Source of the DNA: Minisyncoccota bacterium
Lineage (GTDB): Bacteria; Patescibacteriota; Minisyncoccia; Phycocordibacterales; DATDWN01
Direction of reading: 5' to 3'
DNA: 58,287 nucleotides
Assembly (NCBI GenBank): GCA_041674105.1
Contig: JBAYWK010000004.1
Location: 1-58,287 of the forward strand
A program made the translations under genes and the position numbers. The notes under the pieces were generated by a model. That model searched no databases and had not been told where the DNA came from. It worked only from the letters and a program-made list of their open reading frames with translations. The first letter of the stretch is position 1; each line of letters opens with the position of its first letter. Below, one piece after another: positions 11,719-58,287 of this stretch.

Positions 11719-11843
11719 GTTTGTTTTAAAACAATTATCAATAAAAATTAGACTTAATCTAAATTAACAAAACCCTCATCTATAATTTCACTCGATTTGA
11801 TATTTATTCCATTTCACCAAAAAACCTGATATCCTATTGTTAT

Positions 11844-29170: not shown

Positions 29171-29292
29171 ATTAATCTCCCAATGAACTGAAATTTTGGA
29201 ATTACTCCCACCAAGATATTCAAACCTTGAAAACCTCAGTGGGAGCCCAAAAATAGCCATATTTATGGCCAAATTCTTAGTTTTCTATATAT

Positions 29293-40131: not shown

Positions 40132-42024
40132 TTATTCTATTGTTTCTGGGTTATCTACCACAGGTTCTGGCTCTGCTTCTGGTAAAATTACTGGTTGTGA
40201 TTCTTCTTCAATAACTACCTTATCATCATTTGATTCTTCCTGTGTTTTCTCTACTGGTTCAGAAATAACTTCTTCCAAAACAACTTCTTCTTCTATGACT
40301 TCAGGCTCTTCTTCTGCTGTAACAACCTCCTTGGGTTCTTCGACTGTTTCTTCTGAGATTTCTTCTGTTCCCGCCACTTTTTCTTCCTCAACATTGTTTT
40401 CCACACCTTCAGGTTTTAGCCCTTCTTCCACAGGAGTAAGAGCTCCCGATATTTCTACAATAGGACTCTCTTCTTCTGGTTGTGTCAGAAGTATTTGGAA
40501 AGGAGCAGGATCATATATTTTACCACTATTCATTTTTGTATTGAGCATTGGATTTTCTGGGCCAAAAGCAACAATCTTTAACCAGATGTATCCCAAAAAT
40601 CCTGAAGGAACTTGCCAACTATAACTTCCAGTATTTGAAAGCTTCTGCCCTATGGAAACTTCCTCGTCTGAAGGAGTCAGAGAAGCTGAACCGTCAGTAT
40701 CTTTTATAAATGCCAAATCTATCAAAAGGTCATTGTCGGCTCCATTTGGATTTGTAGCTGTCCAAGTAATGTTGTAGTTGTATGTCCAATACCAAGTTAG
40801 AGTTCCACTCTGGTCTGGGTAGATTAGATCTAAGACAGGAGGAGTAAGTTTTACAAAATCTGACGCCTGATTTGTATCATAACCATTTGGTTTTCTACCC
40901 AAAGTAGAACCCCCTGGCACATCCAAGGCCCCTGGATTCCACACATTTTCATTATAATTTACCCAAGTTGTAGTGGCAGTTCCCCAGTTCATCTGATCTA
41001 TTATTATTCCATCTGGTCTTTTCAAAACCAACATATCAGCAGTATTAGCTAAACCGTTTCCAATTGAACCTCCTAAAACAATAGAAACCACACCATCTGC
41101 TCTCTGCCAATAATCCCAAGTGGACTCATCTGGAGCTATAACAGCAAAACCTTTGGCTGGTATCGGGTCACTTGTTGGTATCGTATCACAAGCTGTATTA
41201 TCACAAATTTTCCAACCTGTAATATCTATATCAGTATCTGTTTGGTTGTATATTTCTACCCATTCGTTTGTCGTATCAACTCCTCTTTTCGGAGAATCAA
41301 CATCATAATAGACTTTATTTATCCTCAGTCCCCAAGAATAAATAGTTGTAGAGGCAATCTCGTTATCAACAAAACCTCCACCCAAAATAGGATCGGAATT
41401 TTGAACAGCATTGTATGTAAAATTAAAAGTACAAACAGAGTTTGGCGTAGAAGAAGCAGAAAGTGTATTAAAAGTTATATCCCACAAGTCTGGTGTAGAT
41501 GTAGATATTAAAGTTGTTGTAGCTGAAACAAAAGTTGTAGTACTTCCCACCTGCCAAGGATTTCCATTTAGAGAAATGCCCAGACTCAAATCATTACAAA
41601 AACTCAAATCCCCAGAGGCATTGGTAGTGCTAGCGTTGTATATAAAAGGACTACTTTGCGGGCCACCTTGTATTTTTATTTGTTTTTTTGTTGTTGTGCC
41701 AGAACCAAAACTTAAAGATGACTCCAAGGTGTCTAGGTCTCCATTTAAGACTTCTATATCCACTACTCCAGCCTGCAAATTATTGTATGAAGTTTCTACA
41801 TCATTGTAATAAGAAGTGGTGATCCCTATAAAACTTGGACCACTAAACCAAATAATAGCCACCAGAGATGCAAAAGCGACTCTAGCCAAAACATAATTGT
41901 GGTCAACTTTTTTGAATTTTCTTTTGGTTCTTTTATAAAACCTTAGATATGTTTTAGAAATACTCTTATAAAGTGTCTTTATTTTTTTTACAAATCTATT
42001 CTTTTTTACATATCTTCTCTTCAT
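40132..42024 (-). CDS. SipW-substrate-like protein with a lamin-tail domain and acidic C-terminal tail
   Basis: TM followed by TTSYYNDVETSYNNLQAGVVDI; LRINKVYYD..NEWVEIYNQT..IDITGWKICD (LTD); Glu-rich tail. Confidence 0.75.
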   Translation of the reverse strand: MKRRYVKKNRFVKKIKTLYKSISKTYLRFYKRTKRKFKKVDHNYVLARVAFASLVAIIWFSGPSFIGITTSYYNDVETSYNNLQAGVVDIEVLNGDLDTLESSLSFGSGTTTKKQIKIQGGPQSSPFIYNASTTNASGDLSFCNDLSLGISLNGNPWQVGSTTTFVSATTTLISTSTPDLWDITFNTLSASSTPNSVCTFNFTYNAVQNSDPILGGGFVDNEIASTTIYSWGLRINKVYYDVDSPKRGVDTTNEWVEIYNQTDTDIDITGWKICDNTACDTIPTSDPIPAKGFAVIAPDESTWDYWQRADGVVSIVLGGSIGNGLANTADMLVLKRPDGIIIDQMNWGTATTTWVNYNENVWNPGALDVPGGSTLGRKPNGYDTNQASDFVKLTPPVLDLIYPDQSGTLTWYWTYNYNITWTATNPNGADNDLLIDLAFIKDTDGSASLTPSDEEVSIGQKLSNTGSYSWQVPSGFLGYIWLKIVAFGPENPMLNTKMNSGKIYDPAPFQILLTQPEEESPIVEISGALTPVEEGLKPEGVENNVEEEKVAGTEEISEETVEEPKEVVTAEEEPEVIEEEVVLEEVISEPVEKTQEESNDDKVVIEEESQPVILPEAEPEPVVDNPETIE

Positions 42025-42031
42025 TTTGGTT

Positions 42032-42583
42032 TTATTCCTGCTCTATTTCCTCCTTTTCCTTTTGTTCTTTTATTTTCTTCTTTTTCATCTTCTTTACTTC
42101 TTTCATTATTTTCACAACCTCGTCATAGACTATAAAAAGAGCTGGGATAACAATAATCAGAATAATTCCTGTTGGTTTCCTAGCAAAGTCTATAATGTAA
42201 CCAATAAAAGGAACTGAAAGCAAAACCTTTCCAACTATATCTTCTTCTGTAATCTCACCTGGATCTACAGCATTATTCGCATCACCTTTTGTGGCAAACA
42301 AGAGTGTCCCGCTAGAAACTCTGCTAGAAACTATTCTGTGTGTAGTCGGAATCTCATTTTTCTTTTTACCACCAAAAGTGACCACATCTCCCACTCCGTA
42401 CTGACTTTCTGGTTTTACTATGACAATACTTCCTACTTTTATTGTTGGCTCCATAGAACCAGAAGAAACTATTTTAACTTGGAAGTTTCCTTTTATAGGA
42501 AAAAGAGTAATGAGAAGTAAAATCCCTATTAAAATAACAAATGTATAAAGAACTGAATATAAAATTTTAAAGACTTTGTTCAT
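42032..42583 (-). CDS. sipW: SipW-type (S26B) signal peptidase I
   Basis: VSSGSMEPTI, GDVVTF, TTHRIV (Ser-His), TKGDANN..D; flanking TM helices. Confidence 0.92.
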   Translation of the reverse strand: MNKVFKILYSVLYTFVILIGILLLITLFPIKGNFQVKIVSSGSMEPTIKVGSIVIVKPESQYGVGDVVTFGGKKKNEIPTTHRIVSSRVSSGTLLFATKGDANNAVDPGEITEEDIVGKVLLSVPFIGYIIDFARKPTGIILIIVIPALFIVYDEVVKIMKEVKKMKKKKIKEQKEKEEIEQE

Positions 42584-42647
42584 TTTTTATGTAAAGTCTT
42601 AATCCCCACCACAAGAGATTGTGGTGAGTCAAAGACTTCAAACTATC

Positions 42648-44003
42648 TTATAGGTTAGGCTGAGGTGGTGATACCGGCTTATCTAGTTCCGGTACTGGAG
42701 TATAAGGAGGTTGACTTGCGATATTATCACAAGAGAACTCTGGATTATTTCTTGTCTGCACAGCATATGCTGTAAGTGAGGCTGCAAATGAATCTGACTG
42801 TGCGTTATTTAACATTCCCGATCCATCACAAACTAAAGCATCTCCATCTAGAGATAATGTTCCTGCACACCAAGCTAAACCAATATTTTTTGTAGTTGTA
42901 GCTGTAAGGAACTGTTGATTTCCAGAATCCAAACTCATCAAACTACCAAAGCTACTTAGAGGAGCAGGTCCTGTAATAATACCTTCTCCACTATCATGAA
43001 CACCGTTTGCATTTGTGTCCATCCAAGTAACAACATCTAAGTAATTTGAAAGTTCACCATTTCCTGAAGGATTTCCAACATTAGGAAGATCCCCTGTTTC
43101 AGATTCCTGAATTCCATTTTCTTGATCATCTTTGTTGTGAACGATTAGACAAGCATAAGCGTCGTTGTCATAGACGTGTAGAGAGATAACATTTGAACCT
43201 TCATCCCCTGGTTTTATATCACCAAAGTTGAAGAATGAGTCACCTTCTCCCAAATCTTTCTCTGTCCAAAGACGACAAGCGTTTTGGAAACCTGGAACAC
43301 TATTCTCAAATTCTTGTCCACATTGACCATCAATATGAAGTGCATATTTAAGACCTGCTGGATTATTTAGCACAGTACCATTTGGTTGTGCCCAGTTTTT
43401 AACCACAAATTGAAGAGTGTTAGTCCCTTGAACAATGTAAGGTGTCAAATCAACTGCTATAACATCAGCGGTGCTGTGATTGTTTTCTGATGCGTCATAG
43501 GCGATTTTTGTTCCATTAAGCCATACTTCATAACTATTGTCCGTAGCAACTGCAAAGTTTACAATTGCTTGGTCAAACGGTCCGTTCCAAGTAAACTTCT
43601 TTTCAAATGTGTAAGTTACATCAGTTGTAACATCAGCTAGAAGCACTGGATCGGTCGCCCAAATCCACTCTGCACCTGGAATATTTGCATCCCAGTTAGA
43701 ACCAGATGTTGTAACAGATGTAGGTGACACTAACACCGCTGTGTGAGGGAAAGACACAGGGTCACTACCCCCAACTGTTGCTACTACCATATTGCTTGTG
43801 TCGGAAACCAAATCAACATCACAAGTCCTACAATCTACACCATTGTAAGTTTGTTTTGTGTGATCTACTTTTAGGTCAATTGATCCTGCAGTAAAGATGT
43901 TACCTGATGAAGTTTCTTGGTCGTTATAGAACGCGCCAGTCACTCCCCAGACAATTCCTCCAACAAGAGCAATTACACCCAAACTTAATAATATTTTTTT
44001 CAT
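42648..44003 (-). CDS. TasA/CalY-family protein with a SipW-cognate signal peptide and an inserted beta-sandwich domain
   Basis: MKKILLSLGVI...TGAFYNDQETSSGNIFTAGSIDLKVD; FNFGDIKPGDEG; NNAQSDSFAASL. Confidence 0.85.
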   Translation of the reverse strand: MKKILLSLGVIALVGGIVWGVTGAFYNDQETSSGNIFTAGSIDLKVDHTKQTYNGVDCRTCDVDLVSDTSNMVVATVGGSDPVSFPHTAVLVSPTSVTTSGSNWDANIPGAEWIWATDPVLLADVTTDVTYTFEKKFTWNGPFDQAIVNFAVATDNSYEVWLNGTKIAYDASENNHSTADVIAVDLTPYIVQGTNTLQFVVKNWAQPNGTVLNNPAGLKYALHIDGQCGQEFENSVPGFQNACRLWTEKDLGEGDSFFNFGDIKPGDEGSNVISLHVYDNDAYACLIVHNKDDQENGIQESETGDLPNVGNPSGNGELSNYLDVVTWMDTNANGVHDSGEGIITGPAPLSSFGSLMSLDSGNQQFLTATTTKNIGLAWCAGTLSLDGDALVCDGSGMLNNAQSDSFAASLTAYAVQTRNNPEFSCDNIASQPPYTPVPELDKPVSPPQPNL

Positions 44004-44022
44004 AATTGCTTTTTGTTAATAA

Positions 44023-45390
44023 TTAATTTTCAAAATCGTGAACTATTCCGTTAAAGATAAGATTATCTACAAGAACAACCTGGTCTTTATTGTAAGTACC
44101 CATTCCAATACTGATACCAACAACCTTTGCGTTTGGATATTCAGCTAATAGTTGATTAAGTGTGAAATTAACTGGAGGATAACCACCTCCGCCACTTGAA
44201 TTATTTCCGTTAATAAGAACGCCATTTACCCAGAAAGTACCATCAGCTAGTGTAGCAGCCCAATTCTGCCAAGTACCATTTGTAATTGATGCGTCATTAA
44301 GACTGTCATATGCCGCGATGTTATAATACGGTTCAAATGTAACATCTTTAACAAGTGTGCCGTCATCAAGAAAATCAATAACTAGTCGGAAACTTGCATT
44401 TCCATTTATAGGATCAAATGCTGAGATTTGTTTTGAATCGTATGAGAATCCACTGATAGTTGAGAGTTTAACATCCTCGGCATGATTATATCGTACTCGA
44501 GAATTAACATCATCAGCTGTTGTTAACTGAAGAACCTTTGAACCTAGTGGTGCGTTAGCATCTTCTACAAATGCAACATCTCCACCGTCTTGAGTACCAT
44601 TTTCTGTCCAAACGATTTCTGGTTCTTGTGATTGTCCCCAATCTGAACACTTAAATTGTCCATTGTTTCTAGACTGAACAGTGTAGAAAGAAATATCTCC
44701 AGTTAGACTATCTGTTTGTGTTATGTTTCCTGATGTAGAAGGAAGTCCCCACTTTACACCTAAGTAAGTAGTAGTAGCTCCTGTCAAAGGTGCTCCTGTA
44801 GTTGAGTCATAGAGAGCCAAAACTCCATTTACAGGTTGTCCTGAAAGTAATGGAACTTCATCGTTATTCATAATATTATCCCCATCATCCTTCCAAATTG
44901 TCCAAACCATTTCTTCATCTAACTCGCCTTTTGCATTTGTATCATTTATTTTTACTTCTGGGCCTGTTAGACTATTTTCATCACTTGATAAGTTTGATAC
45001 AGCAGCACAAAGCCACGCATCGTTGTTTATAACATGAAGACTTATAGTGTTTTCACCAGAATCTCCTGGTTTTATATCATTAAAACTGAAGAATTTTTCA
45101 CCGACAATGTCTAACCCATTGCCATCTTGTCCCCAAGTACCTCCACAAGCGCTTCCTATAACAGGATATTGTGGAATTGTTTCTGAAGCATCTTGTTCAA
45201 GTGCCCACACTCCATTAACACAAATAGCATTGTTGTAGTGTTGCTGACTGTCTATTTTCAAATCAATTGCTCCAGCTGTAAAAACATTTGCAGTTGAAGT
45301 TTCTGTATCAGAGAAAAAAGCTCCTGTGGCACTTATTGAAATAGCAGCCACTATAGCGATTACTCCTAAACTTAGTAATATTTTTTTCAT
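44023..45390 (-). CDS. TasA/CalY-family protein with a SipW-cognate signal peptide and an appended C-terminal domain
   Basis: MKKILLSLGVI...TGAFFSDTETSTANVFTAGAIDLKID; FSFNDIKPGDSGENTISLHV; QTDSLTGDISF. Confidence 0.87.
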   Translation of the reverse strand: MKKILLSLGVIAIVAAISISATGAFFSDTETSTANVFTAGAIDLKIDSQQHYNNAICVNGVWALEQDASETIPQYPVIGSACGGTWGQDGNGLDIVGEKFFSFNDIKPGDSGENTISLHVINNDAWLCAAVSNLSSDENSLTGPEVKINDTNAKGELDEEMVWTIWKDDGDNIMNNDEVPLLSGQPVNGVLALYDSTTGAPLTGATTTYLGVKWGLPSTSGNITQTDSLTGDISFYTVQSRNNGQFKCSDWGQSQEPEIVWTENGTQDGGDVAFVEDANAPLGSKVLQLTTADDVNSRVRYNHAEDVKLSTISGFSYDSKQISAFDPINGNASFRLVIDFLDDGTLVKDVTFEPYYNIAAYDSLNDASITNGTWQNWAATLADGTFWVNGVLINGNNSSGGGGYPPVNFTLNQLLAEYPNAKVVGISIGMGTYNKDQVVLVDNLIFNGIVHDFEN

Positions 45391-48393: not shown

Positions 48394-49056
48394 CTACTTC
48401 TCTTCCTCAATTAAACCATCTTTGAGCCAGATGACTCTGTCTACATATTTTCTATCCTCTGGTTCGTGTGTCACAACTAAAATTGTTTGCTTCAATTCTT
48501 TATTAAGTTTTTGAAAAAGTTTAAAAACAATTTCTGATGAAACTGTATCAAGGTTAGCCGTTGGCTCATCAGCAAAAAGTACTTTTGGGTTATTTATAAG
48601 TGACCGTGCAATAGCAACTCGTTGTTGTTCACCCCCAGACATTTCACTTGGATAATGGCTTATCCTCTCTCCCAAACCAACTAAATCTAAAAGATGCTCT
48701 GCTCGTTTTTTAGCCACTTCATCTCCAGAAGCCATTGCTGGAAAATAAACATTTTCAAGGGCTGTAAACTCTGCGATTAAGGCATATTCTTGGAAAACAT
48801 ATCCTAAATGCTCAAGCCTAAATTTGGTTCTCTCTTCATCGGACAAAGACAAGACATCTGATTTATTGATAACAACACTACCAGAGGTTGGTTTATCAAG
48901 AAGACCCAGTTGATGTAAAAGAGTTGATTTACCTGACCCACTTCTTCCCATAAGTGCCACGAGCTCCCCTTCAGCGATTTCAAGTGTAACACCTTTGAGC
49001 GCTTGTGTTGGAATTTTCCCTGGATATGTTTTTATAAGATTTTCTACTTTTATCAT
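48394..49056 (-). CDS. ABC transporter ATP-binding protein (MacB/LolD-like)
   Basis: GRSGSGKST, MSGGEQQRVAIARSL, FADEPTANLD, VVTHE. Confidence 0.92.
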   Translation of the reverse strand: MIKVENLIKTYPGKIPTQALKGVTLEIAEGELVALMGRSGSGKSTLLHQLGLLDKPTSGSVVINKSDVLSLSDEERTKFRLEHLGYVFQEYALIAEFTALENVYFPAMASGDEVAKKRAEHLLDLVGLGERISHYPSEMSGGEQQRVAIARSLINNPKVLFADEPTANLDTVSSEIVFKLFQKLNKELKQTILVVTHEPEDRKYVDRVIWLKDGLIEEEK

Positions 49057-49064
49057 ATATTTTA

Positions 49065-50294
49065 TTAACCCCAAATTGATTTAAGAATGTTTTCTCTTGC
49101 TACAATCTTGGCAGGAATAAATCCCGCTAAAACCCCTGCAATGATTAAACTTGCGATATTTATAAAAATTCCAAGGGAAGTATAAGCCAAACTGGCATTA
49201 CCAAATGGCATTGGAATAGGTCGTGCAGTAAGAAAAGGAATAACTATTAAAAATATCACTATAGTTCCGCCTATAACACCTAAAATCGCATAGAAAAGGG
49301 ACTGAATGACATACGACAGTTCTATAATACTTTCCTTTATCCCAATAGCTTTCAAAATACCTATCTGTCTACGCTTGCTGACGGCATTTACATAAATCAT
49401 AACGAATATAGTTATAGCGGCTACAATAATACTGATGATGCTTACAATAATTGCAATAACATTGAAAGCCGAGACCAGTACGCCCACGGTTGATAGGCGG
49501 TCAATATATGTCTCGGTTGTAAGCTCCGGTAAAATAGATTGAATCCGGTCAATATAATATGCTAAAGAGTTTTTAGTTAGATCCACCTTGACCATAATCT
49601 CAGAAGCATTGTTATATGTTGAAAGTACTGCTTCCGCTTCCTTTGTTGATATAAATGCGGTACTACCAATTCCTCCTATGGTTATTTTAAATATCCCCTT
49701 GATCGTATATGTTCGCATTATTCCATTTACATAAGTCACTTGCACTTTATTGCCCACAGTAGCACCACCCAGATCGTTTGTTTGTTTTGTACCAAAACCA
49801 CCAGAAAGGTTTGCTCCTAGTATTATTTCATCTTTTTTTAGATCATCGGGAAATTCCCCAGAGATCATATTTTTATTTACCTCTAAGACATTTTTTTCTT
49901 CTGACTGTGTTATACCGATTATTGGGGCAGAGACATATTTGAATCTACCATTATTTTCTTTATCATAAGCAAAAGAACCCCCCAATTGATAATGACTGGC
50001 GGTAGAAATAATACCTGGAATAGTTTGGATTTGTGCGCGCACACTGTCTGCGTCAAGAATAAAATCCTTACGAGTTGGCTCTTGTTGTGGCATAACAATA
50101 ATATGAGCCGTCGAAGTGTCTACCATAGATCTCATAATCCCATCAGAAAAACCTGAGAGAAAACCCGAAACAAACATTAGATTAAAGAAGGAAAGTGATA
50201 AAATAAAAATAATAAGAGCCACTGTAGATTTATGACCTTTGGTGATAGTTTTATAAGCTATAAATAAAGCCGTTTTTATATCGGTCTTACTCAT
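49065..50294 (-). CDS. ABC transporter permease (FtsX/MacB-like)
   Basis: TM1, large extracytoplasmic domain, three C-terminal TMs; RRQIGILKAIG motif. Confidence 0.88.
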   Translation of the reverse strand: MSKTDIKTALFIAYKTITKGHKSTVALIIFILSLSFFNLMFVSGFLSGFSDGIMRSMVDTSTAHIIVMPQQEPTRKDFILDADSVRAQIQTIPGIISTASHYQLGGSFAYDKENNGRFKYVSAPIIGITQSEEKNVLEVNKNMISGEFPDDLKKDEIILGANLSGGFGTKQTNDLGGATVGNKVQVTYVNGIMRTYTIKGIFKITIGGIGSTAFISTKEAEAVLSTYNNASEIMVKVDLTKNSLAYYIDRIQSILPELTTETYIDRLSTVGVLVSAFNVIAIIVSIISIIVAAITIFVMIYVNAVSKRRQIGILKAIGIKESIIELSYVIQSLFYAILGVIGGTIVIFLIVIPFLTARPIPMPFGNASLAYTSLGIFINIASLIIAGVLAGFIPAKIVARENILKSIWG

Positions 50295-50295
50295 A

Positions 50296-51834
50296 TTATT
50301 TTTTATTACCGAGAACAACTTGCTCACCCAAAGAAAGACCTGATGTGATTTCAATCATACCTAAATCATTTTTGATCCCAGTAGTTACTTCTTTATCAAT
50401 AACTTGTTTTTCTTCAAAAACTTGAACAATTTTTTTACCATCTTTATCCTGCACAGCACTTACTGGAACGAAAAGAGTATTCTCGGAAATAGCCGTTTCA
50501 ATCCAGACATTGGCTGTCATACCAGACTTGATCCTTTCATCCATTTTCTCAAAAAGAACTGTGGTTTTATAATATACAGCACCACCAATAATAGTTTCTG
50601 CTGGATCTATGGCCACCACTTTACCAAAAAACTCTTCTTTATCAATTGAATCAAATGTAATCCTGGCTTCTTGTCCAACTCGGACATTTACAATATTGTC
50701 TTCCACAACATTCAATTTAATCTGAAGTGCTCCACCGGTAGCAAGTGAGATAATGGTCTTGTCCGGACCAACAACCTCACCAACCTCACCATTTACCTCG
50801 GTCACTACACCAGATAAAGGGGCAGAAATTATTAAATCTTCTCTTAGGGATTGGGTTCTTTGTAGAGAAGCTTTGGCTTGGCTAATTTGTGATTGATACA
50901 CTGCAATATCGGAAGGTCGTGCAGGAGCCTTCTTTAATGCTAGATGACTTTCGGCCGTTTTCAACCCTGCTTCTTTCGCTTTGAGATTTTCTCCCGCAAT
51001 TAGAAGATTAGAAATTGCAATATCTATATTTGTTCTGGCTGTAGAAATATCAGTTTTCCATTTATCAATTGTTGTCTGAGAAGTATTGGAGCTCGGGGTG
51101 AGGGCATTTACCAACAGTGCTATTTTTTCAATAAATGATTTAACCTGATTAGTGTTTTGCTCTGCAATAAGATAGCTAGAGGAAAGGTCATCTTGTGCAG
51201 AAATTGTACCAAGTGAGTTGACCCATTTATTTAAAGCTTCTTCAATTAAAACCCTACCACCTTCAACATCATTTTCAAGCTGTCCATTTGAAGAGATAAA
51301 AACCAATTGCGGACTGGAAGTCTTTGGATTACTAAACAACTGATCAGTTTTCCCGCGTACCGCATCATCAGATTTAGTATAAGAATTATTTACTTTATCA
51401 ATAAGACTATATTTGGCGTCCTGCAGTGCTTGCTTAGCATTTGTTACCGCCGTCTCGGACAAATTAATATCTTCTACAGACACCCCACTAAGTAGCTGAT
51501 CCAATTTCGCCTTCTGTAAATCTATACTGGCTTGCATTTCAAAAACCTGAGCGTCAAGCTGGGTACTATCTTGTTTAGCAAGGACATCACCGGCAGAGAC
51601 CTTGTCTGAGACTTTTGCATTCATTGAAACTAACTTTCCACTACTTCTAAAATGTAAATCAATTTTGGTTGGTGACTCAACTTTTCCACTAGCTGAAACC
51701 TCTTGAATCATATTGCCTCTTTGAACTACAGCCAATTCATACGGTATATTATTGGCTCGTCTGATTAAAAAAATTGTCGCACCGGCTAAAACAATGATAA
51801 TAATTCCTGCGATTAAAAGAGACTTTTTGTTCAT
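50296..51834 (-). CDS. Efflux periplasmic adaptor subunit (HlyD/MacA-like)
   Basis: VSASGKV, lipoyl-like halves, long hairpin coil, ISAPLSGVV, IKSGMTANV. Confidence 0.88.
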   Translation of the reverse strand: MNKKSLLIAGIIIIVLAGATIFLIRRANNIPYELAVVQRGNMIQEVSASGKVESPTKIDLHFRSSGKLVSMNAKVSDKVSAGDVLAKQDSTQLDAQVFEMQASIDLQKAKLDQLLSGVSVEDINLSETAVTNAKQALQDAKYSLIDKVNNSYTKSDDAVRGKTDQLFSNPKTSSPQLVFISSNGQLENDVEGGRVLIEEALNKWVNSLGTISAQDDLSSSYLIAEQNTNQVKSFIEKIALLVNALTPSSNTSQTTIDKWKTDISTARTNIDIAISNLLIAGENLKAKEAGLKTAESHLALKKAPARPSDIAVYQSQISQAKASLQRTQSLREDLIISAPLSGVVTEVNGEVGEVVGPDKTIISLATGGALQIKLNVVEDNIVNVRVGQEARITFDSIDKEEFFGKVVAIDPAETIIGGAVYYKTTVLFEKMDERIKSGMTANVWIETAISENTLFVPVSAVQDKDGKKIVQVFEEKQVIDKEVTTGIKNDLGMIEITSGLSLGEQVVLGNKK

Positions 51835-51951
51835 AGAATATGATTATTTAATAAATTAGTTAGTTGGACATTTTTTAATGGTCTTGATAATATCAAATCG
51901 ATAAGTTTATATGATTTCTTTGTGACTTATTATCTTAATCATAAAGCAATC

Positions 51952-51964
51952 GCATAAACTATGC
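51952..51964. promoter_or_regulatory. Possible MarR operator in the divergent intergenic region
   Basis: GCATA-N3-TATGC palindrome between the efflux operon and marR; short, so it could be chance. Confidence 0.3.
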
Positions 51965-51988
51965 AAGAGCATTATCCTATAAAGATTT

Positions 51989-52510
51989 ATGTCCCAAAAA
52001 AAACCAGCTACACGCAAAAAAATAATAGATAGCCTAATATCCTCCCTCCACAAAGAAACTCGTGCAGCGACGCTTTTTGTGCATACAATATCTGAAATAA
52101 CAGGAATACATCCTACAGATATAAAATGTTTGGATTTTTTAAGTGAAGTTCACTCTGCAACTGCTGGTGAACTGGCTAAAATCACCGGCCTTACAACCGG
52201 TGCAATCACAGCAGTTATTGATAGGTTAGAAAGTGCTGGCTTTGTAAAACGCGAAGCAGATGTAAAAGATAGAAGAAAAATAATTATTAGATTTATAGCA
52301 GGAAGACCAAATCATTTAGGGTTGGTACAAGATTTATTTGCAAATAAAATACCGAACCTTCTTTCTACATATAAGACTGATGAAATCAAACTAATTGAAG
52401 AGTGGAATATAAAAATGGCCGAAGTATTACATAATGAAATTGAAAAATTGAAAATTTCTAAAAAAGCCAAAACTTTATCTGCCAAAGAAAAGCGTGCTGT
52501 GTTAAAATAA
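51989..52510 (+). CDS. MarR-family transcriptional regulator
   Basis: TAGELAKITGLTTGAITAVIDRLESAGFVKR..DRRKIII. Confidence 0.92.
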   Translation: MSQKKPATRKKIIDSLISSLHKETRAATLFVHTISEITGIHPTDIKCLDFLSEVHSATAGELAKITGLTTGAITAVIDRLESAGFVKREADVKDRRKIIIRFIAGRPNHLGLVQDLFANKIPNLLSTYKTDEIKLIEEWNIKMAEVLHNEIEKLKISKKAKTLSAKEKRAVLK

Positions 52511-52515
52511 AATCT

Positions 52516-52761
52516 ATGTCCAAAAAAACGACAAAAATGCCTCACGAGATACCGAAAGATTTCCAAAAAGCTATAAATTCCTCCCCTTCTTCCAAAGCGG
52601 TGTGGGAAGATATTACACCACTAGCAAAAAATGAATGGATTTGCTGGATTATTTCTCCCAAAAAATTAGAAACACGAGAGAGAAGGATAAAAATAGGCCT
52701 AAGCAAGCTTTCATCTGGAATGAGAAGACCTTGTTGCTGGGCTGGCTGTCCACATCGTTAA
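52516..52761 (+). CDS. YdeI/OmpD-associated family protein
   Basis: IPKDFQKA..WEDITPLAKNEWICWI..PKKLETRERRI..RPCCWAGC. Confidence 0.85.
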   Translation: MSKKTTKMPHEIPKDFQKAINSSPSSKAVWEDITPLAKNEWICWIISPKKLETRERRIKIGLSKLSSGMRRPCCWAGCPHR

Positions 52762-52770
52762 AGTATCAAA

Positions 52771-53379
52771 ATGATAGATATTTTTTTAACACAAGCAAAT
52801 TACACGCTTTTTATAAATATTGGAATTTTGTTTTTTATACTACTTGTAATCATATCTCAAAATTCAACCCCTTTTGATTATGAATGGAGAAAAAGAACAA
52901 TTAGTGATCTGGCTATACAGGGTTATAAAAATGCATGGATAATGAGGCTGGCATTTATTACCTTTGGTACATTACTTAACATTGGAGTCTTTATCAAGAT
53001 GCACCAAACGAAAAATACAGATTTTGGAGAAGTCTTAATCTTGATACACGGATTTAGTATGTTATTTTCAGGAATATTTTCTACTGCACCAGTTGGAAAT
53101 ATGACACCCTATAAAAACTTTACCGATAAATTCCACTCGGTATTAGCATATGTAGCTGGAATAGCTCTTACAGGATCATCTCTTTTTTATTTCTTTACAA
53201 CAAGTAACCCTGCCAAAATAATACACATATCTTTCTTTATATTAACATTGATGATCACCACTCTCTTTAGTTTGTCCAAAAGAGATGTCCTAAAGATGGA
53301 TCATGGAATCATCCAAAGATTACTTTACTTAAATGGTTTACTTTGGATATTTATAAATTACAATATATTGACACCGTAA
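52771..53379 (+). CDS. DUF998-like multi-pass membrane protein
   Basis: TISDLAIQG..AWIM, FHSVLA, QRLLY; about 5 TMs. Confidence 0.7.
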   Translation: MIDIFLTQANYTLFINIGILFFILLVIISQNSTPFDYEWRKRTISDLAIQGYKNAWIMRLAFITFGTLLNIGVFIKMHQTKNTDFGEVLILIHGFSMLFSGIFSTAPVGNMTPYKNFTDKFHSVLAYVAGIALTGSSLFYFFTTSNPAKIIHISFFILTLMITTLFSLSKRDVLKMDHGIIQRLLYLNGLLWIFINYNILTP

Positions 53380-53396
53380 ATCTATATTTAAATAAA

Positions 53397-53753
53397 ATGA
53401 ATAAATTAACAGCTGAAGAAAAAAGAATAATTATAAACAAAGGTACTGAAGCTCCTTTTTCTGGTGAATATGTTAATAATAAAGAAACAGGTGTTTATGT
53501 TTGTAGACAATGTGAATCTCCACTTTACAACTCTAAAGATAAATTTGAATCTACTTGTGGCTGGCCTAGCTTTGATGATGAAATAGAAGGAGCAATTAAA
53601 AAAACATTAGATTCTGACGGACAAAGGATAGAAATAATCTGTGCAAAATGTGGAGGACACTTGGGGCATGTATTCGAGGGAGAGGGTTTTACAGAAAAAA
53701 ATATTAGACACTGTGTAAACTCTATATCAATGAAATTTATATCTGGGAAATAA
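53397..53753 (+). CDS. msrB: Peptide-methionine (R)-S-oxide reductase (start moved to ATG 53397)
   Basis: KGTEAPFSG, CRQC, CGWPSF, CAKCGGHLGHVF, RHCVNS. Confidence 0.95.
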   Translation: MNKLTAEEKRIIINKGTEAPFSGEYVNNKETGVYVCRQCESPLYNSKDKFESTCGWPSFDDEIEGAIKKTLDSDGQRIEIICAKCGGHLGHVFEGEGFTEKNIRHCVNSISMKFISGK

Positions 53754-53757
53754 AAAT

Positions 53758-54243
53758 ATGATTAAAAAATTAGTACTAGGAGGCGGTTGTTTTTGGGGAT
53801 TGCAAGATCTCATTCGAAAACAAAAAGGAATAATAAATACAACTGCTGGATATTCTGGTGGAATTGTTTCAAACCCAACTTATGAAAATCACGAGGGACA
53901 TGCCGAGGTGGTAGAAATAGAATACGATACAGAAAAAACTTCTTTGAGAAATATTTTAGATTTCTTTTTTCAGATACACAATCCTACAACATTAAACAAA
54001 CAAGGTAATGATATTGGAACATCTTATAGATCGGTTATATTCTATACAAATGAAGAAGAGAAAAAAGAAGCTTTAGATTTTATTGATTTAGTAAATAAAT
54101 CTGGACGATGGGAAAATCCAGTAGTAACAACACTTGAGCCTTTTAAATCTTTTACAAAAGCAGAAGAATACCATCAAGATTATTTATTGAAAAATCCAGG
54201 AGGCTACACTTGTCATGCTATATATTTTGATAGTTATTTGTAA
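53758..54243 (+). CDS. msrA: Peptide-methionine (S)-S-oxide reductase
   Basis: GGGCFWG, GHAEVV, QGNDIGTSYRS, AEEYHQDY. Confidence 0.95.
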   Translation: MIKKLVLGGGCFWGLQDLIRKQKGIINTTAGYSGGIVSNPTYENHEGHAEVVEIEYDTEKTSLRNILDFFFQIHNPTTLNKQGNDIGTSYRSVIFYTNEEEKKEALDFIDLVNKSGRWENPVVTTLEPFKSFTKAEEYHQDYLLKNPGGYTCHAIYFDSYL

Positions 54244-54250
54244 GAAAAAC

Positions 54251-54736
54251 TTACTTTCTTTTATTCAAAATCTCATCTACATCTCTTATTTCTCCCCAAA
54301 TACCATCTATAAGGTCGTATTCTTTGGCTTCCTCCACTGTAACCCACTTAAAATCTACAGTGTCTTCATCCATTTTAACTTCACCAGAAAGATATTTTGC
54401 AAAATAACTAAATACAATAACAGGTATTCCGTCTGGGCGAATAAAAGTAAGATCTACAAGAAACTCTGGTTTATCTATCTCTAGTCCAACCTCTTCTTTT
54501 ATTTCTCTCCTTAGAGATTTTTCTAATGCTCCATACCACTGAGGAGCACCTTTTGTACTAGGTGGAGTATTTATATAATCATTAACTTCAAGTCCCCCGC
54601 CTGGAACAGTCCACTTTCCTGGATGAACTTTTTTATGAGGAGCCCTTTTCGTAATTAAATATCTACCTTCGTTATAAATAATCGTTGTTGTAACAATCCT
54701 ATGAAGCTCTTCATGTATAGGTTTTGCTATGTCCAT
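54251..54736 (-). CDS. NUDIX hydrolase
   Basis: WTVPGGGLE...LRREIKEEVGL. Confidence 0.88.
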   Translation of the reverse strand: MDIAKPIHEELHRIVTTTIIYNEGRYLITKRAPHKKVHPGKWTVPGGGLEVNDYINTPPSTKGAPQWYGALEKSLRREIKEEVGLEIDKPEFLVDLTFIRPDGIPVIVFSYFAKYLSGEVKMDEDTVDFKWVTVEEAKEYDLIDGIWGEIRDVDEILNKRK

Positions 54737-54745
54737 AAGATTATT

Positions 54746-55549
54746 TTAGTTTTGATCGTCAGAATAAGCAACAACTTTGTTTCTTCCACCTCTTTTAGCT
54801 TCATACAGAGCACTATCTGCTTTTTTGTACAATTCTTTAAAATCTAAATCGTCTAGAGAGGAGGCAATTCCAGCACTCATAGTAACCTTAAGTCCTGGAA
54901 TTGAAAAATCTAAACTCTGAACCAACTCTCTTAATTTTTCTGTTTTATCCACTGCACCTTTCTTATCTGCACCAAGTAAAGCTATGGCGATTTCTTCTCC
55001 TCCCCATCTACAAACAATATCCCCTCCTCTGACAGAAGTCTTAAGAGTTTCTGAAACTTTTCTCAAAACTTCATCCCCTATTTCATGACCAAATGTATCA
55101 TTTATATCTTTAAAATGATCAAGATCACATAATACAAAACTTAAATCCTCAAACCCCTTATCCTCTTTTCTTCTTTCAGGCATTTCTTCACCTCTAGTTT
55201 TTTCAATCATACCTAATCTATCACTTACCAACTCTTCAAAAAAATTCCTCTTTTTAAGGCCGGTCAAATCATCTGTAACTTTTTCAATCTCAAGAATTTT
55301 TTTCTCAAACCTCAAATCACCAATTTCTTTTAATAAGTTTGTTATGACTTCTTTATCAAAATCTTTATCCTGACTTTCTAACTTTGCTGATAATTCTATA
55401 GCTATCTCTTCTAGTTTGCTTTTTTGTCCCTCAATCTCTTCCAGTTTTGACTTTAAAAAAGAATTTTCTTCTTCCAAATTCAAAACTCTGTCCTCTAAAG
55501 ACTCTGGACTAGGTATGTCATTATCTAATATCTCAAACGATTCTTTCAT
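54746..55549 (-). CDS. Diguanylate cyclase (coiled coil plus GGDEF domain)
   Basis: DDLTGL, CDLDHFKDINDTFGHEIGD, RGGD I-site, RWGGEEI, ADSALYEAK..GRN. Confidence 0.92.
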   Translation of the reverse strand: MKESFEILDNDIPSPESLEDRVLNLEEENSFLKSKLEEIEGQKSKLEEIAIELSAKLESQDKDFDKEVITNLLKEIGDLRFEKKILEIEKVTDDLTGLKKRNFFEELVSDRLGMIEKTRGEEMPERRKEDKGFEDLSFVLCDLDHFKDINDTFGHEIGDEVLRKVSETLKTSVRGGDIVCRWGGEEIAIALLGADKKGAVDKTEKLRELVQSLDFSIPGLKVTMSAGIASSLDDLDFKELYKKADSALYEAKRGGRNKVVAYSDDQN

Positions 55550-55553
55550 ATTT

Positions 55554-56453
55554 TTATTCTACCTTTAATCCTCTCAGGGCTGCCACTCTTTCTTCCACAG
55601 GTGGATGAGTCATAAATAATTTATGAAGTCCTTTGCTGGCTTTTGCTCCAAATGGATTTGAGATATACATATGAGCAGTTGCATTATTTGCTTTTTTAAG
55701 ACCTTGCCCATAACCAGAAATCTTCTCTAAAGCACTGGCTAAACCCTCTGGGTATCTGGTCAAAAGCGCTCCTGAAGCATCGGCCAGAAACTCTCTTTTT
55801 CTAGAAATGGCAAGCTGGATAAGAGTAGCTACTACAGGGGTGAGGATAGATAAAACTATTCCTGCAATAAGCATTATTAAACCAGCATTTCCATTTCTAT
55901 CATTTGATCTACCCCCAAACATATTTGACCTCAAAAACATATCAGCTAAAAGAGCAACAAAACCTACCAAAACAACAACCACAGTCTGAAGCAAAATATC
56001 TTTGTTTCCTATGTGGGAAAGTTCGTGAGCAATAACCCCTTCTATTTCTGTTTTATCGAGTATTTGTAAAAGTCCAGATGTTACAGCTACAGCACTATGC
56101 TCCTTGTTTCTACCGGTAGCGAAAGCATTTGGAGATGGATCATTTATTACATAGAGCTTTGGCATTGGAAGTCCAGCGGTAATGCAAAGGTTTTCTGTAA
56201 TATTCCAAAGCTCTCTGTTTTCTTCTCTAGACACCTCTTTAGCTCCAGACATAGACAAAACTATCTTGTCGGAAAACCAGTAACTGAAAAAGTTCATTAA
56301 AATACTAAAAATAACAGCAAAATATAAAATCTCTGGAGAAGAATAAAAATAACTGAATCCCCATCCTATAAAAATAACAAAAACAAAAAACAAAGACATT
56401 AAAAGCCAAGTCTTCCTTATGTTTGAATCATAATTTTTATAAAGTGAAGCCAT
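55554..56453 (-). CDS. htpX: HtpX-like M48 zinc metalloprotease
   Basis: PNAFATG, AHELSH (HEXXH), SRKREFLAD, THPPVEER. Confidence 0.9.
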   Translation of the reverse strand: MASLYKNYDSNIRKTWLLMSLFFVFVIFIGWGFSYFYSSPEILYFAVIFSILMNFFSYWFSDKIVLSMSGAKEVSREENRELWNITENLCITAGLPMPKLYVINDPSPNAFATGRNKEHSAVAVTSGLLQILDKTEIEGVIAHELSHIGNKDILLQTVVVVLVGFVALLADMFLRSNMFGGRSNDRNGNAGLIMLIAGIVLSILTPVVATLIQLAISRKREFLADASGALLTRYPEGLASALEKISGYGQGLKKANNATAHMYISNPFGAKASKGLHKLFMTHPPVEERVAALRGLKVE

Positions 56454-56469
56454 ATTTTTTAGATTTTAC

Positions 56470-57030
56470 CTAAAATTTTACTTCTACCGGTTGTCTGGCT
56501 GCTTGTTCATCTTCGCCTAGCTCAAAGAATTCCATTTTTGAGAAATTGAAAACATTAGCAACAATATTTTTTGGAAAGGAATCAACAGCGATGTTTAAAT
56601 CTCTCACATTTGTGTTGTAAAACCTCCTAGATGCTTGGATTTTATTTTCTGTATCAGAAAGTTCCCTTTGAAGTTCTAAAAAGTTTGTATTTGCTTTAAG
56701 TTCTGGATAATTTTCCGCAACAGCAAAAAGACTTTTCAAAGTTCCAGAAAGCATATTTTCTGCTTTACCTTTTTCTTCTACAGTACCTGCATTCATAGCA
56801 GAAGTACGAGCCTCTGTAATCTTTTCAAAAGTAGAGCTCTCGTGTGTAGCATAACCTTTAACAGTATTTACCAAGTTTGGAATAAGGTCGTAACGACGCT
56901 TTAGTTGAACATCAATATCTGCCCAAGCTTCTTTGGCACGGTTTATGAGTTTTACAAAACCATTGTAAGCAGCAATAAACCAAATAAATAAAATAGCTAT
57001 AATACCGATCAATATGTATATTGGATTCAT
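56470..57030 (-). CDS. lemA: LemA family protein
   Basis: WADIDVQLKRRYDLIPNLV, ENYPELKAN, ENKIQASRRFYN. Confidence 0.95.
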   Translation of the reverse strand: MNPIYILIGIIAILFIWFIAAYNGFVKLINRAKEAWADIDVQLKRRYDLIPNLVNTVKGYATHESSTFEKITEARTSAMNAGTVEEKGKAENMLSGTLKSLFAVAENYPELKANTNFLELQRELSDTENKIQASRRFYNTNVRDLNIAVDSFPKNIVANVFNFSKMEFFELGEDEQAARQPVEVKF

Positions 57031-57102
57031 AATTTTATATAAAAGTTTACCTTATTAAATAACAAGCGTATTATAACATAAATTTCCAGATTTTTTGTAT
57101 AG

Positions 57103-57199
57103 AAAAAGCGCAGGCGACACACAAAATGTGTATTACCTGCGCTGTGGACCAAAAGGTCCTAGTTTTTGGCGTTTTTTGTCGAACGCCTGCGGTGGAAAA
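57103..57199. repeat. 97-bp direct repeat, copy 1 (PEP-CTERM basic tail, stop and terminator)
   Basis: Matches 57914-58010 except for one T/C mismatch; contains the agcgcagg...cctgcgct hairpin with a T-tract on minus. Confidence 0.9.
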
Positions 57200-57815
57200 T
57201 CCCTGCCACAAGAAGGCCAAGACCGGTCAAAAGCATCGTTGCCGGTTCGGGAACAGCCTCGATACGAATGTTGTCGAGTACTGCACCAGCATATCCGGAA
57301 TCCGAATACACGTTGGCAAATCGGAGGTGTTCCGATGTCGGTGCACCAAAATTAAAGGCGACATTCTCTGTTGGGTAAGGGTTATTTGCTCCCACCCTAT
57401 CAAAACTGCCGATAAATAATGCTCCCAACCATACCTCAACAGTGGCCGCCCTACTAAGGTCGCTGTTTGGGAAGTACCACCCAATGAGATCGAAACTAAG
57501 CATATAATTGCCCGCCTCGAAATCAATGGGGTTAACCGTCTCAATAACACCCCCGCCGTTGTTGTTCCCACCGTAAGTGTCAATACAGACACCGCTGGTA
57601 GGAGCAACGCAAAGCGTAGTGTAGGTGTCACTCGGTGTGACGACATCCACACTACCACTCAAGACTTGAAATTGTGTGCCCACAAGGACACCTGAGGTTT
57701 GAGATTGTATGTTAACTCCATTCTCGAAGTCCTCGAAGAAGATTGTTGCTGCAAATGCCGACCATGATGTCAGCACAAAAATCACAATAACCAGTAGACA
57801 CTTTGTCATTGTCAC
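57159..57815 (-). CDS. PEP-CTERM sorting-domain surface protein
   Basis: Signal peptide (..SAFA), beta-rich domain, VPEPATMLLTGLGLLVAGIFHRRR; AAGGAG SD and TTGCTT-N17-TATAAA promoter (57854-57882). Confidence 0.9.
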   Translation of the reverse strand: MTMTKCLLVIVIFVLTSWSAFAATIFFEDFENGVNIQSQTSGVLVGTQFQVLSGSVDVVTPSDTYTTLCVAPTSGVCIDTYGGNNNGGGVIETVNPIDFEAGNYMLSFDLIGWYFPNSDLSRAATVEVWLGALFIGSFDRVGANNPYPTENVAFNFGAPTSEHLRFANVYSDSGYAGAVLDNIRIEAVPEPATMLLTGLGLLVAGIFHRRRSTKNAKN

Positions 57816-57913
57816 TATTACTCCTTAATTTTTGAAAAGAACCGAACTTGGTTTTTATATCACACTTTGATACAAAAAGCAAGTTCATCATTGCGACTTA
57901 ATTTTTAAAATGA

Positions 57914-58010
57914 AAAAAGCGCAGGCGACACACAAAATGTGTACTACCTGCGCTGTGGACCAAAAGGTCCTAGTTTTTGGCGTTTTTTGTCGAACGCCTG
58001 CGGTGGAAAA
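57914..58010. repeat. 97-bp direct repeat, copy 2
   Basis: Offset of 811 bp from copy 1, one mismatch. Confidence 0.9.
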
Positions 58011-58287
58011 ATCCCGCCATAAGGAGTCCGACACCCATTAACCCAAAGGTCGCCGGTTCGGGAACGGATTCAACAGAACCCTCCCAAACGGCTCCAAATG
58101 AGTAGCCTGACCGTTGGTACGTCCAGAGAGCAAGTTTGTTATTCCCTTGAGCCAAGTGGCCTGTAAGGGAAATGGTTTGAAACTCCGCCTGTTCGCAGGC
58201 GATTGGCCCTGCGGCACAGGTTGCATCCTGTGTCCAGTTGGCCGCCTTTAGTAAGTATCCGCCCGGGTGGAGCGAGTTTATGATGTA
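57970..58287 (-). CDS. Second PEP-CTERM protein (5'-truncated by the window edge)
   Basis: Frame is open from the window end: YIINSLHPGGYLLKAANW...SVPEPATFGLMGVGLLMAGFFHRRRSTKNAKN*. Confidence 0.88.
   Translation of the reverse strand, partial: YIINSLHPGGYLLKAANWTQDATCAAGPIACEQAEFQTISLTGHLAQGNNKLALWTYQRSGYSFGAVWEGSVESVPEPATFGLMGVGLLMAGFFHRRRSTKNAKN

Follow-up and report, generated by a model that had tools for sequence, protein, structure and literature searches.

The window analysed here is the whole of contig JBAYWK010000004.1, 58,287 nucleotides from a Minisyncoccota bacterium (assembly GCA_041674105.1). At its far end lie two tandem genes for small proteins with a PEP-CTERM tail, called gene 1 and gene 2 below, which are situated upstream of lemA and which share, as a near-identical repeat of 97 bp, their last codons, stop codon and terminator. 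The preliminary description, made by a model from the letters alone, had taken them for part of a cassette array. The features of the locus are as follows.

56470–57030, minus: lemA, the conserved downstream boundary of the island discussed here, followed by htpX, a GGDEF gene and a NUDIX gene (Pfam and synteny)
57031–57102, minus: ancestral intergenic spacer upstream of lemA, orthologous to those of the related loci L210 and L211
57103–57199, minus: repeat copy A, comprising the gene 1 tail and stop, a small hairpin (57146–57159), the main terminator hairpin (57108–57142) and a U-run; the ancestral lemA-upstream spacer comes next
57159–57809, minus: gene 1, complete, 216 amino acids from ATG (open reading frame and translation)
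57162–57254, minus: PEP-CTERM domain of gene 1 (VPEPATMLLTGLGLLVAGIFHRRRSTKNAKN), with an HRRR cluster of the type found in the Candidate Phyla Radiation (CPR) (TIGR02595, PF07589)
57750–57809, minus: signal peptide of gene 1 (MTKCLLVIVIFVLTSWSAFA, then ATIFF), read from the translation
57810–57913, minus: AT-rich spacer between terminator B and gene 1, containing the Shine-Dalgarno sequence AAGGAG, what may be an extended -10, and a degenerate duplicate of the ribosome binding site (RBS) and start
57914–58010, minus: repeat copy B, the same block ending gene 2, with the ancestral G at 57944, as in L210
57970 to beyond 58287, minus: gene 2, cut by the contig end, C-terminal 105 amino acids visible

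Gene structure, tails and terminators

The ATG of gene 1 is also the start of the public gene call, which specifies the same product, and an alternative in-frame GTG is found at 57815, two codons 5' of it. By inspection, its signal peptide has a basic N-terminus, a hydrophobic core and an A-x-A site. Judging from the full-length relatives P0093, P0095 and P0096 (proteins are denoted by P numbers and loci from other assemblies by L numbers), gene 2 specifies approximately 220 residues, some 115 codons lying beyond the contig end, and its full-length orthologs start with MKFPKILLVFLVVFAFVLSVSAS, then T, again a signal peptide by inspection. The products of both genes terminate in VPEPAT, a 14-residue hydrophobic stretch and FHRRRSTKNAKN, followed by the stop codon. 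Against TIGR02595 (curated cut-off 16) genes 1 and 2 score 25.6 and 24.7 bits, and against PF07589 (cut-off 20.7) 26.5 and 29.2 bits, respectively, the domains stopping 5–7 residues short of the C-terminal end. No further PEP-CTERM-like open reading frame (ORF) was found in the window by a regular-expression scan.

Based upon best hits, the host is a member of the Patescibacteria, or CPR. Its class II ribonucleotide reductase matches solely Patescibacteria/Paceibacteria metagenome-assembled genomes (MAGs), at 67–88% identity and under the labels Paceibacteria, Taylor-, Zambryski- and Nomurabacteria; the matches to LemA are likewise Patescibacteria. The content of the window is also CPR-like, with a split transketolase, a short pentose-phosphate cluster, ribosomal proteins, a pilin and a GC content of 0.30–0.40.

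The preliminary description had reported tandem PEP-CTERM genes in a CPR genome, unrelated passenger regions and an elevated GC content. With both genes above the two domain cut-offs and the host so placed, the first of these observations holds, and so do the others: BLASTP aligns the two proteins over the final 51 amino acids only, and the GC content at third codon positions (GC3) is 0.49 in gene 1 and 0.58 in gene 2, against a mean of 0.25 (sd 0.055) for the 49 other long ORFs of the window. The repeat had been described correctly as well. Its copies, 57103–57199 and 57914–58010, have a single mismatch (57133/57944) and cover the basic tail, the stop and a strong terminator; a promoter and a Shine-Dalgarno sequence had further been assigned to gene 1, of which the latter is present (AAGGAG, 5 nt before the GTG at 57815). 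For the promoter we had less success, since no sigma-70-type site upstream of gene 1 on the minus strand reached the threshold of the promoter scan; an extended -10 (TGaTATAAA) with a weak -35, recognised by eye, leaves it plausible. A sigma-54 -24/-12 motif was not seen by eye upstream of the gene.

In a blastn comparison the repeat covers 111 nt (96.4% identity, E 1e-48), and the same program located no third copy of the 97-bp block in the window. Read on the coding strand, each block begins with the final 12 codons and the stop codon; a hairpin of 5 bp comes next, and after it a GC-rich hairpin of about 16 bp with five to six U residues behind it. The two copies fold with energies of -34.4 and -31.2 kcal/mol (z -6.5 and -4.9 versus shuffled sequences), and in both copies the predicted structure has what defines an intrinsic terminator, namely a GC-rich stem-loop and a U-run directly after the stop. 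The scan tool reported the small hairpin alone, on the opposite strand. The copies are direct repeats, 811 bp apart from start to start. Beyond the 97 bp a weaker homology (~67%) continues upstream through the segment encoding the PEP motif and transmembrane (TM) helix, giving approximately 165 nt in all. The spacers on either side of gene 1 are AT-rich like the rest of the window. Within the upstream one, the RBS/start region of gene 1 (57812–57841) recurs as a decayed copy (77%) at 57885–57914, just past terminator B, possibly left over from an earlier cassette or from an insertion event.

The groESL-lemA locus in related Paceibacteria

Close counterparts of the locus are L210 and L211, from two Logan assemblies, which are 82–88% identical to the window at the DNA level from lemA to the NUDIX gene; LemA itself is 96% identical in amino acid sequence between the window and L210. 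Their gene order is SecG, GroES, GroEL, a 227-amino-acid PEP-CTERM gene, a 220-amino-acid ortholog of gene 2, LemA, HtpX, GGDEF, NUDIX, DUF998, OmdA and MarR. Gene 1 is missing from both. In L210 a gene of 306 amino acids (11354–12274) lies between lemA and htpX, without a counterpart in L211 or the window.

The gene 2 fragment on its own yielded no word-sharing candidate in a homolog search. A search with a profile of the tail revealed a PEP-CTERM ORF directly upstream of lemA in the Paceibacterota MAG L194, and a three-sequence profile recovered the full-length gene 2 relatives P0093, P0095 and P0096 together with an 11-member family of the L194 type. The fragment in the window (P0103) falls in the P0093 cluster and is the ortholog of P0093 and P0096. 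Six species-representative genomes, each with a CPR label, possess the L194-type family, and one member of the family carries the NCBI name 'PEP-CTERM sorting domain-containing protein [Candidatus Moranbacteria bacterium]'. A third Paceibacteria MAG (L047) encodes, at 571–1239 on the minus strand, a 222-amino-acid PEP-CTERM protein (PF07589, 30.8 bits), adjoining genes for a DUF6580 membrane protein and a ribonucleotide reductase and showing no GC3 anomaly relative to its host. The L194 and L047 proteins pass TIGR02595, as do all PEP-CTERM proteins scanned from the relatives except P0090.

A second clade (L194/L213, L206, L207 and L208) also has a PEP-CTERM gene before LemA, the order being a PEP-CTERM gene with the tail YHRRRQ, GroES, GroEL, YdjM, an L194-type PEP-CTERM gene and LemA. 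The genes upstream of groES were located at L208 6407–7069 (+), L206 6316–6888, L207 4549–5265 and L214 62–727, with tails YHRRRQ or FHRWRQ. At L208 6370–6912 there is a public gene call on the strand opposite to the PEP-CTERM gene; it has no Pfam match and is probably a wrong-strand call. In 80 other Paceibacteria loci the gene directly upstream of LemA is GroEL in 21 and SecF in 13, and in L148 YdjM adjoins LemA with no PEP-CTERM gene between them. With GroEL directly next to LemA in 21 of these loci, the PEP-CTERM genes are lineage-specific insertions at one recurrent site. There are one or two of them per related locus, and related assemblies from other samples have between one and three in the interval from groESL to lemA-htpX; the window has two, and a third is predicted from the synteny.

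Gene 2 and its L210 ortholog are 85% identical in DNA and 89% in amino acid sequence, with a dN/dS of 0.11 and a dS of 0.57, substitution values that mark gene 2 as a resident, vertically inherited member of the locus under purifying selection. Its best family model is NF038126 (FxDxF PEP-CTERM), against which the window fragment, P0093 and P0096 score 35, 35.6 and 33 bits (cut-off 50). When JGI metagenomes were scanned with a gene 2 profile, only distant FxDxF relatives were retrieved (26–35% identity, contig GC 0.52–0.59, one contig of 2.3 Mb), which possess an FGVDF motif and tails of the LLRRMRS type; the scan revealed no further CPR islands. AlphaFold2, run on the gene 2 family with four sequences, gave no usable model (pLDDT 40).

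L210 and L211 come from near-identical strains: the dS of GroEL is 0.011, and HtpX and the 227-amino-acid gene are almost identical (dS 0). Yet across approximately 950 bp (L210 9950–10900), from just upstream of the gene 2 ortholog, over the terminator and into the 5' part of lemA, the two differ by a replacement within which gene 2 shows 63% amino acid identity and saturation of synonymous sites. Such a difference between strains so close indicates that the locus undergoes allelic replacement and is hypervariable, as would be expected of an exposed surface protein. Outside this tract, L210 and L211 are 99.5–100% identical.

The unusual base composition is shared with the relatives. In L210/L211 the PEP-CTERM genes have a GC3 of 0.47–0.56 against 0.17–0.29 for host genes, and in L206/L208 0.55–0.68 against 0.40–0.52; overall, an excess over neighbouring host genes (0.17–0.56) is present in the window, L194, L206, L208, L210 and L211, and is lacking in L047. 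Being common to the orthologs, it is no sign of a chimera. Recent horizontal transfer was considered as the cause of the high GC content of gene 2 and rejected, because the orthologs keep the excess at a dS above 0.5. One might speculate about GC-biased gene conversion at a recombination hot spot, or about repeated import of alleles.

Origin of the repeat and of gene 1

Window nucleotides 58287–57915 and 57260–56471 both align to a single region of L210 (10355–11351), which comprises the gene 2 ortholog, one terminator and lemA. A four-way alignment of the two copies with L210 and L211 gave the following values.

Basic tail and stop: copy A versus B 38/38; 53–61% to L210/L211
Terminator: copy A versus B 56/58; 90–93% to L210
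Downstream flank of copy A: ~40% to the copy B flank; 82% to the L210 lemA-upstream spacer, 81% to that of L211
Downstream flank of copy B: ~40% to the copy A flank; 35–41% to the L210/L211 lemA-upstream spacers

Two tails in the window thus correspond to one tail and terminator, those of gene 2 in the relative, and the repeat is accordingly what a local duplication or gene conversion has left behind. The 227-amino-acid gene of L210/L211 has the tail SRRKNRV and an unrelated terminator, and the 97-bp block is consequently no general cassette module.

The passenger of gene 1 belongs to a family of PEP-CTERM proteins of 200–220 amino acids whose named members are from Steroidobacteraceae. The closest homologs are 47–54% identical and are located on contigs with TonB-dependent receptors, ribosomal genes unlike those of CPR and a higher GC content; in a scan of a genome collection the best full-length match was to Pyrinomonadaceae (29%), the others being tail-only matches. 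On the non-CPR contigs (L004 11802–13169 and the equivalents in L005–L009) the surroundings of the homologs are conserved, the genes being those for a GT2 glycosyltransferase, the PEP-CTERM protein, a PIG-L deacetylase, a 60-amino-acid protein and a 455-amino-acid protein, the last of which has 10 TM helices and matches no Pfam family. In its tail gene 1 departs from the rest of its family. A histidine before the arginine cluster, as in HRRR, occurs in 0/79 other tails of the gene 1 family, 0/76 control tails and 5/13 CPR tails. With a CPR-type signature on a passenger of a foreign family, gene 1 joins a foreign-family passenger to a CPR-type tail.

An AlphaFold2 model of gene 1 based upon a 50-sequence alignment (pLDDT 83.8, pTM 0.78) has a beta-sandwich between the signal peptide and a C-terminal helix. 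Foldseek matched it to CBM35, CBM6, CBM4, CBM22, MAM and the gingipain K3 adhesin domain, with E values of 2e-5 to 1e-3 and target-normalised TM-scores of 0.5–0.62. The model thus predicts a CBM-like, lectin-like passenger, which is a lead towards glycan binding or adhesion. The protein scores 32.3 bits against TIGR04362 (choice-of-anchor C), below the cut-off of 120 bits, and some of its distant homologs carry DUF642.

We propose that the two genes constitute the lemA-proximal part of a strain-variable island for small Sec-exported proteins with PEP-CTERM-type anchors, which fills the interval from groESL to lemA-htpX in one subclade of Paceibacteria and in which gene 2 is the resident and gene 1 an extra cassette carried on a copied tail and terminator, and put the probability of this reading at roughly 0.7. 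The ancestral arrangement was gene 2, terminator and lemA; the present one runs from gene 2 through terminator B, the 104-bp spacer, the body of gene 1 and its tail and terminator A to the old spacer and lemA. The resident tail and terminator would have been the site of a duplication or recombinational insertion that gave rise to the repeat, unless gene conversion produced it afterwards; in gene 1 a new passenger would have become joined to a copy of that tail and terminator. From the position of the copies, direct repeats 811 bp apart, we infer that gene 1 would be lost by recombination between them, which would return the locus to the arrangement of L210.

Gene conversion might also account for everything if gene 1 had come with its own tail and terminator and its last 97 bp had been homogenised afterwards from gene 2, or those of gene 2 from gene 1. 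The identity indeed changes abruptly within the domain, at 57199/58010, where 96/97 gives way to about 67%, a step that the edge of a conversion tract would produce, and PEP-CTERM tails are known to be more alike within than between species (Haft et al. 2006, PMC1569441), with which a locally homogenised tail is in keeping. The flanks speak for the insertion: the ancestral lemA-upstream sequence follows copy A and new sequence follows copy B, as expected if an insertion had been flanked by a duplicated block. Conversion following an insertion downstream of the resident terminator would look alike. In our judgement an origin by conversion only is possible but rather unlikely. Far less probable is a dedicated shuffling system, integron-like or otherwise site-specific, which would employ the 97-bp block as its recombination site and furnish every cassette with the same module. 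It would suit the tandem arrangement of the genes, the three hairpins in the block and the varying content of the locus; however, the annotation of the window and of the related loci shows neither an integrase nor a recombinase, the block is partly coding and is an ortholog of the ordinary terminator upstream of the relatives' lemA, neither plasmids (DNA) nor phages (protein) gave a match, and both the single pair of copies in 58 kb and the different tail and terminator of the 227-amino-acid cassette are contrary to it. The proposal of the preliminary description, that variable domains are shuffled onto a constant sorting tail, therefore survives in part. A tandem array whose content varies between relatives, and a foreign-family passenger on a resident-type tail, are both there; the constant module is not, the block being a local duplication or conversion tract.

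The preliminary description had itself raised the concern that the segment belongs to another organism or that the repeat is an assembly artefact. A GC-rich 1.2 kb derived from an outer-membrane-bearing organism would explain the GC3 of 0.49 and 0.58 in a host averaging 0.25, the position at a contig end and the TonB-dependent receptors on the contigs of the nearest gene 1 homologs. What decides the matter is that these genes have the same synteny in the assemblies of other samples (L210, L211, L206, L207, L208 and L213), which disposes of the concern. In addition, the spacers on either side of gene 1 are AT-rich and host-like, copy A is followed by an ortholog of the relatives' lemA-upstream spacer, the orthologs show the same GC3 excess, and assemblies made with k=31 and k=141 concur. 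An ENA MEGAHIT contig (k=141) is identical to window nucleotides 29184–58287 and a Logan contig (L003, k=31, run SRR6484325) to 49019–57163, an agreement to be read with the reservation that independence of these assemblies from the window data is not established. L003 ends exactly 30 nt past the single mismatch, where 31-mers become common to both copies; ending at the onset of the exact repeat, it indicates that run SRR6484325 also holds the branching repeat. We regard a chimera or artefact as the most improbable of the explanations weighed here. The NCBI and ENA MEGAHIT contigs end on the same base, 58287, inside the most conserved segment of the gene 2 family, and from this shared end point we would guess at a second allele or paralog in the sample which shares that core.

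Several points weigh against the island as we read it, or limit it. Duplication with insertion and gene conversion yield the same final structure and are not separable here, and the demonstrable copy is the last 97 bp, the PEP-TM segment of gene 1 being 64–67% identical to any gene 2 allele. The contig stops inside gene 2, so that the remaining island and the predicted groEL boundary lie outside it. The proposal does not account for the GC3 excess that persists in most of these lineages. An adhesin role for gene 1 rests on fold similarity with modest TM-scores of 0.4–0.6, and the absence of an exosortase, discussed below, is based upon 58 kb of this genome and flanks of about 10 kb in the relatives.

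Proposed anchoring of the proteins and comparison with known systems

Patescibacteria are known to possess a single membrane and to lack an outer membrane and lipopolysaccharide. In such a cell the passengers would be exported by the Sec pathway with removal of their signal peptides, and would be held at the outer face by the C-terminal helix, the HRRR cluster being cytoplasmic. They might then act as variable adhesins or glycan binders towards a host or the surrounding matrix.

Whether the tail is also a substrate for an enzyme is a separate question. In canonical sorting an exosortase or archaeosortase encoded elsewhere in the CPR genome would cleave at the PEP motif and transfer the passenger to an acceptor in the envelope or a polysaccharide. 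The domains do pass the curated PEP-CTERM models, and VPEP is invariant across at least four unrelated families of CPR passengers, a constancy suggestive of recognition by an enzyme and not of simple anchoring. Archaeosortases, an enzyme family related to the exosortases, moreover function in cells without an outer membrane. On the other side, there is no exosortase (PF09721-type) among the Pfam-annotated genes of the window, nor one near the PEP-CTERM genes of seven CPR loci (L206, L208, L210, L211, L213, L216 and L218), to a distance of about 10 kb; a motif screen of CPR loci found none, nor did an (insensitive) one-seed phmmer search of 1.71 Mb of such loci; and some L194-type tails (KAAAKS, IKKKA) lack the arginine cluster. 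The one exosortase-like ORF, a candidate on the strength of a CSGLRSL motif, came from the Planctomycetales control locus L107. We would give a plain membrane anchor somewhat less than even odds, consider an own exosortase elsewhere in the genome a doubtful though real prospect, and assign what remains to another enzyme processing the tail. Processing by an exosortase of the host cell, which the preliminary description had also suggested, seems topologically unlikely.

Multi-TM ORFs near the CPR PEP-CTERM genes were inspected as candidate exosortases and rejected, as they proved to be PrsW, a Na/H exchanger, TMEM175, MFS, HtpX and DUF998 proteins. A PrsW-family intramembrane metalloprotease is conserved 3–4 kb downstream of the L194-type genes in four loci (L206 14656–15360, L208 13612–14310, L213 6523–7218 and L216 12557–13258) and was not seen in the window.

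Two further regions of the window may be mentioned. On the minus strand at 28484–29272 there is a 262-amino-acid ORF (TTG start) whose sole domain is the C-terminal domain of the RNA polymerase alpha subunit (PF03118, 59 bits); its GC3 is 0.56 versus 0.25, the ENA MEGAHIT assembly breaks inside it (one contig ending at 29142, the next beginning at 29184), and it may be another compositionally odd or variable gene. The minus-strand cluster at 40132–45390 specifies an LTD-domain protein, an S26 signal peptidase (42032–42583) and paralogous proteins of 451 and 455 amino acids with camelysin/M73-like N-termini, and resembles a dedicated secretion set of the SipW/TasA type.

What is new here is a PEP-CTERM-type anchor in a single-membrane lineage, with a tail signature of its own and organised as a hypervariable island. 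Such proteins have so far been treated as a marker of outer-membrane-bearing, exopolysaccharide-producing, exosortase-positive bacteria (PMC1569441). Their conservation under purifying selection in CPR means either that the sorting system is broader than thought or that the tail serves as a simple anchor. The attachment of CPR to their hosts is poorly understood, and the island is a testable candidate for attachment and host specificity. It also illustrates how foreign surface domains can be taken up by a reduced genome, namely by being joined to an anchor already present there. A wider picture, which we offer tentatively, is that a CPR clade without an outer membrane has adopted its own HRRR variant of the PEP-CTERM anchor, operating without an exosortase or with an unrecognised enzyme, and displays rapidly exchanged lectin-like surface proteins from a hot spot between groESL and lemA. 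New passengers, some of them from outer-membrane-bearing neighbours or hosts, would be grafted onto the resident tail, and the proteins would serve attachment to host or matrix, their variation tracking host range.

The nearest known system is PEP-CTERM/exosortase (EpsH), with which the proteins described here share the VPEP motif, a helix of about 20 residues and an arginine cluster at the extreme C-terminus, an N-terminal signal peptide, small, diverse and poorly annotated passengers, the presence of several genes per genome, and tails that resemble one another more closely within a genome than across genomes. Haft et al. (2006, PMC1569441) found PEP-CTERM only in bacteria with an outer membrane and genes for exopolysaccharide (EPS), always with EpsH, and usually in many copies, the median being eight per genome. 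The present host, a member of the Patescibacteria/Paceibacteria, falls outside this rule, the group being known to lack an outer membrane, and no exosortase, PrsK/R/T or EPS locus was found in the sequence seen. The window shows two such genes, with a probable total of three, and each related locus has one or two. The histidine before the arginine cluster is a further difference, found in 0/155 non-CPR tails. Within the library searched, no paper was found linking PEP-CTERM or exosortase with CPR, and a paper on Patescibacteria episymbionts of Zoogloea merely cites the work on floc PEP-CTERM proteins; the NCBI pipeline does already name at least one such protein in a Moranbacteria MAG.

Among individual families, gene 2 and its orthologs score highest against the full-family model of FxDxF PEP-CTERM (NF038126), and their distant soil-metagenome relatives (26–35% identity) possess FGVDF. 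The CPR proteins differ in scoring 33–36 bits against a cut-off of 50, in having GYSFGAVW in place of the motif and in forming a cluster of their own. PepA and other PEP-CTERM proteins of activated sludge (PMC9850573) are small and secreted, have their own promoter and a stem-loop terminator, and tie exopolysaccharide to cells. Our proteins are similarly small and secreted PEP-CTERM proteins with weak matches to NF033554 (26–32 bits), which are however far under the 80-bit cut-off, and PepA needs RpoN and PrsT (Betaproteobacteria), neither of which was seen here. With CBM35/6/4/22, MAM and gingipain K3, gene 1 has in common the predicted beta-sandwich and, through TIGR04362, weak sequence matches; at 10–18% identity, TM-scores of 0.4–0.6 and 32 bits against 120, no ligand can be inferred from them.

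The locus also recalls integron arrays in its tandem, promoter-proximal small genes, in a content which differs by strain and in a structured repeat at the 3' end of a cassette. It differs from them in that there is no integrase and no attC-type site here, the repeat being a duplicated terminator with coding sequence which the other cassettes lack. In its logic the system resembles LPXTG/sortase and PGF-CTERM/archaeosortase, where a signal peptide, a passenger, a short motif, a TM helix and a basic tail are likewise combined in single-membrane cells; the motif is VPEP here, rather than LPXTG or PGF.

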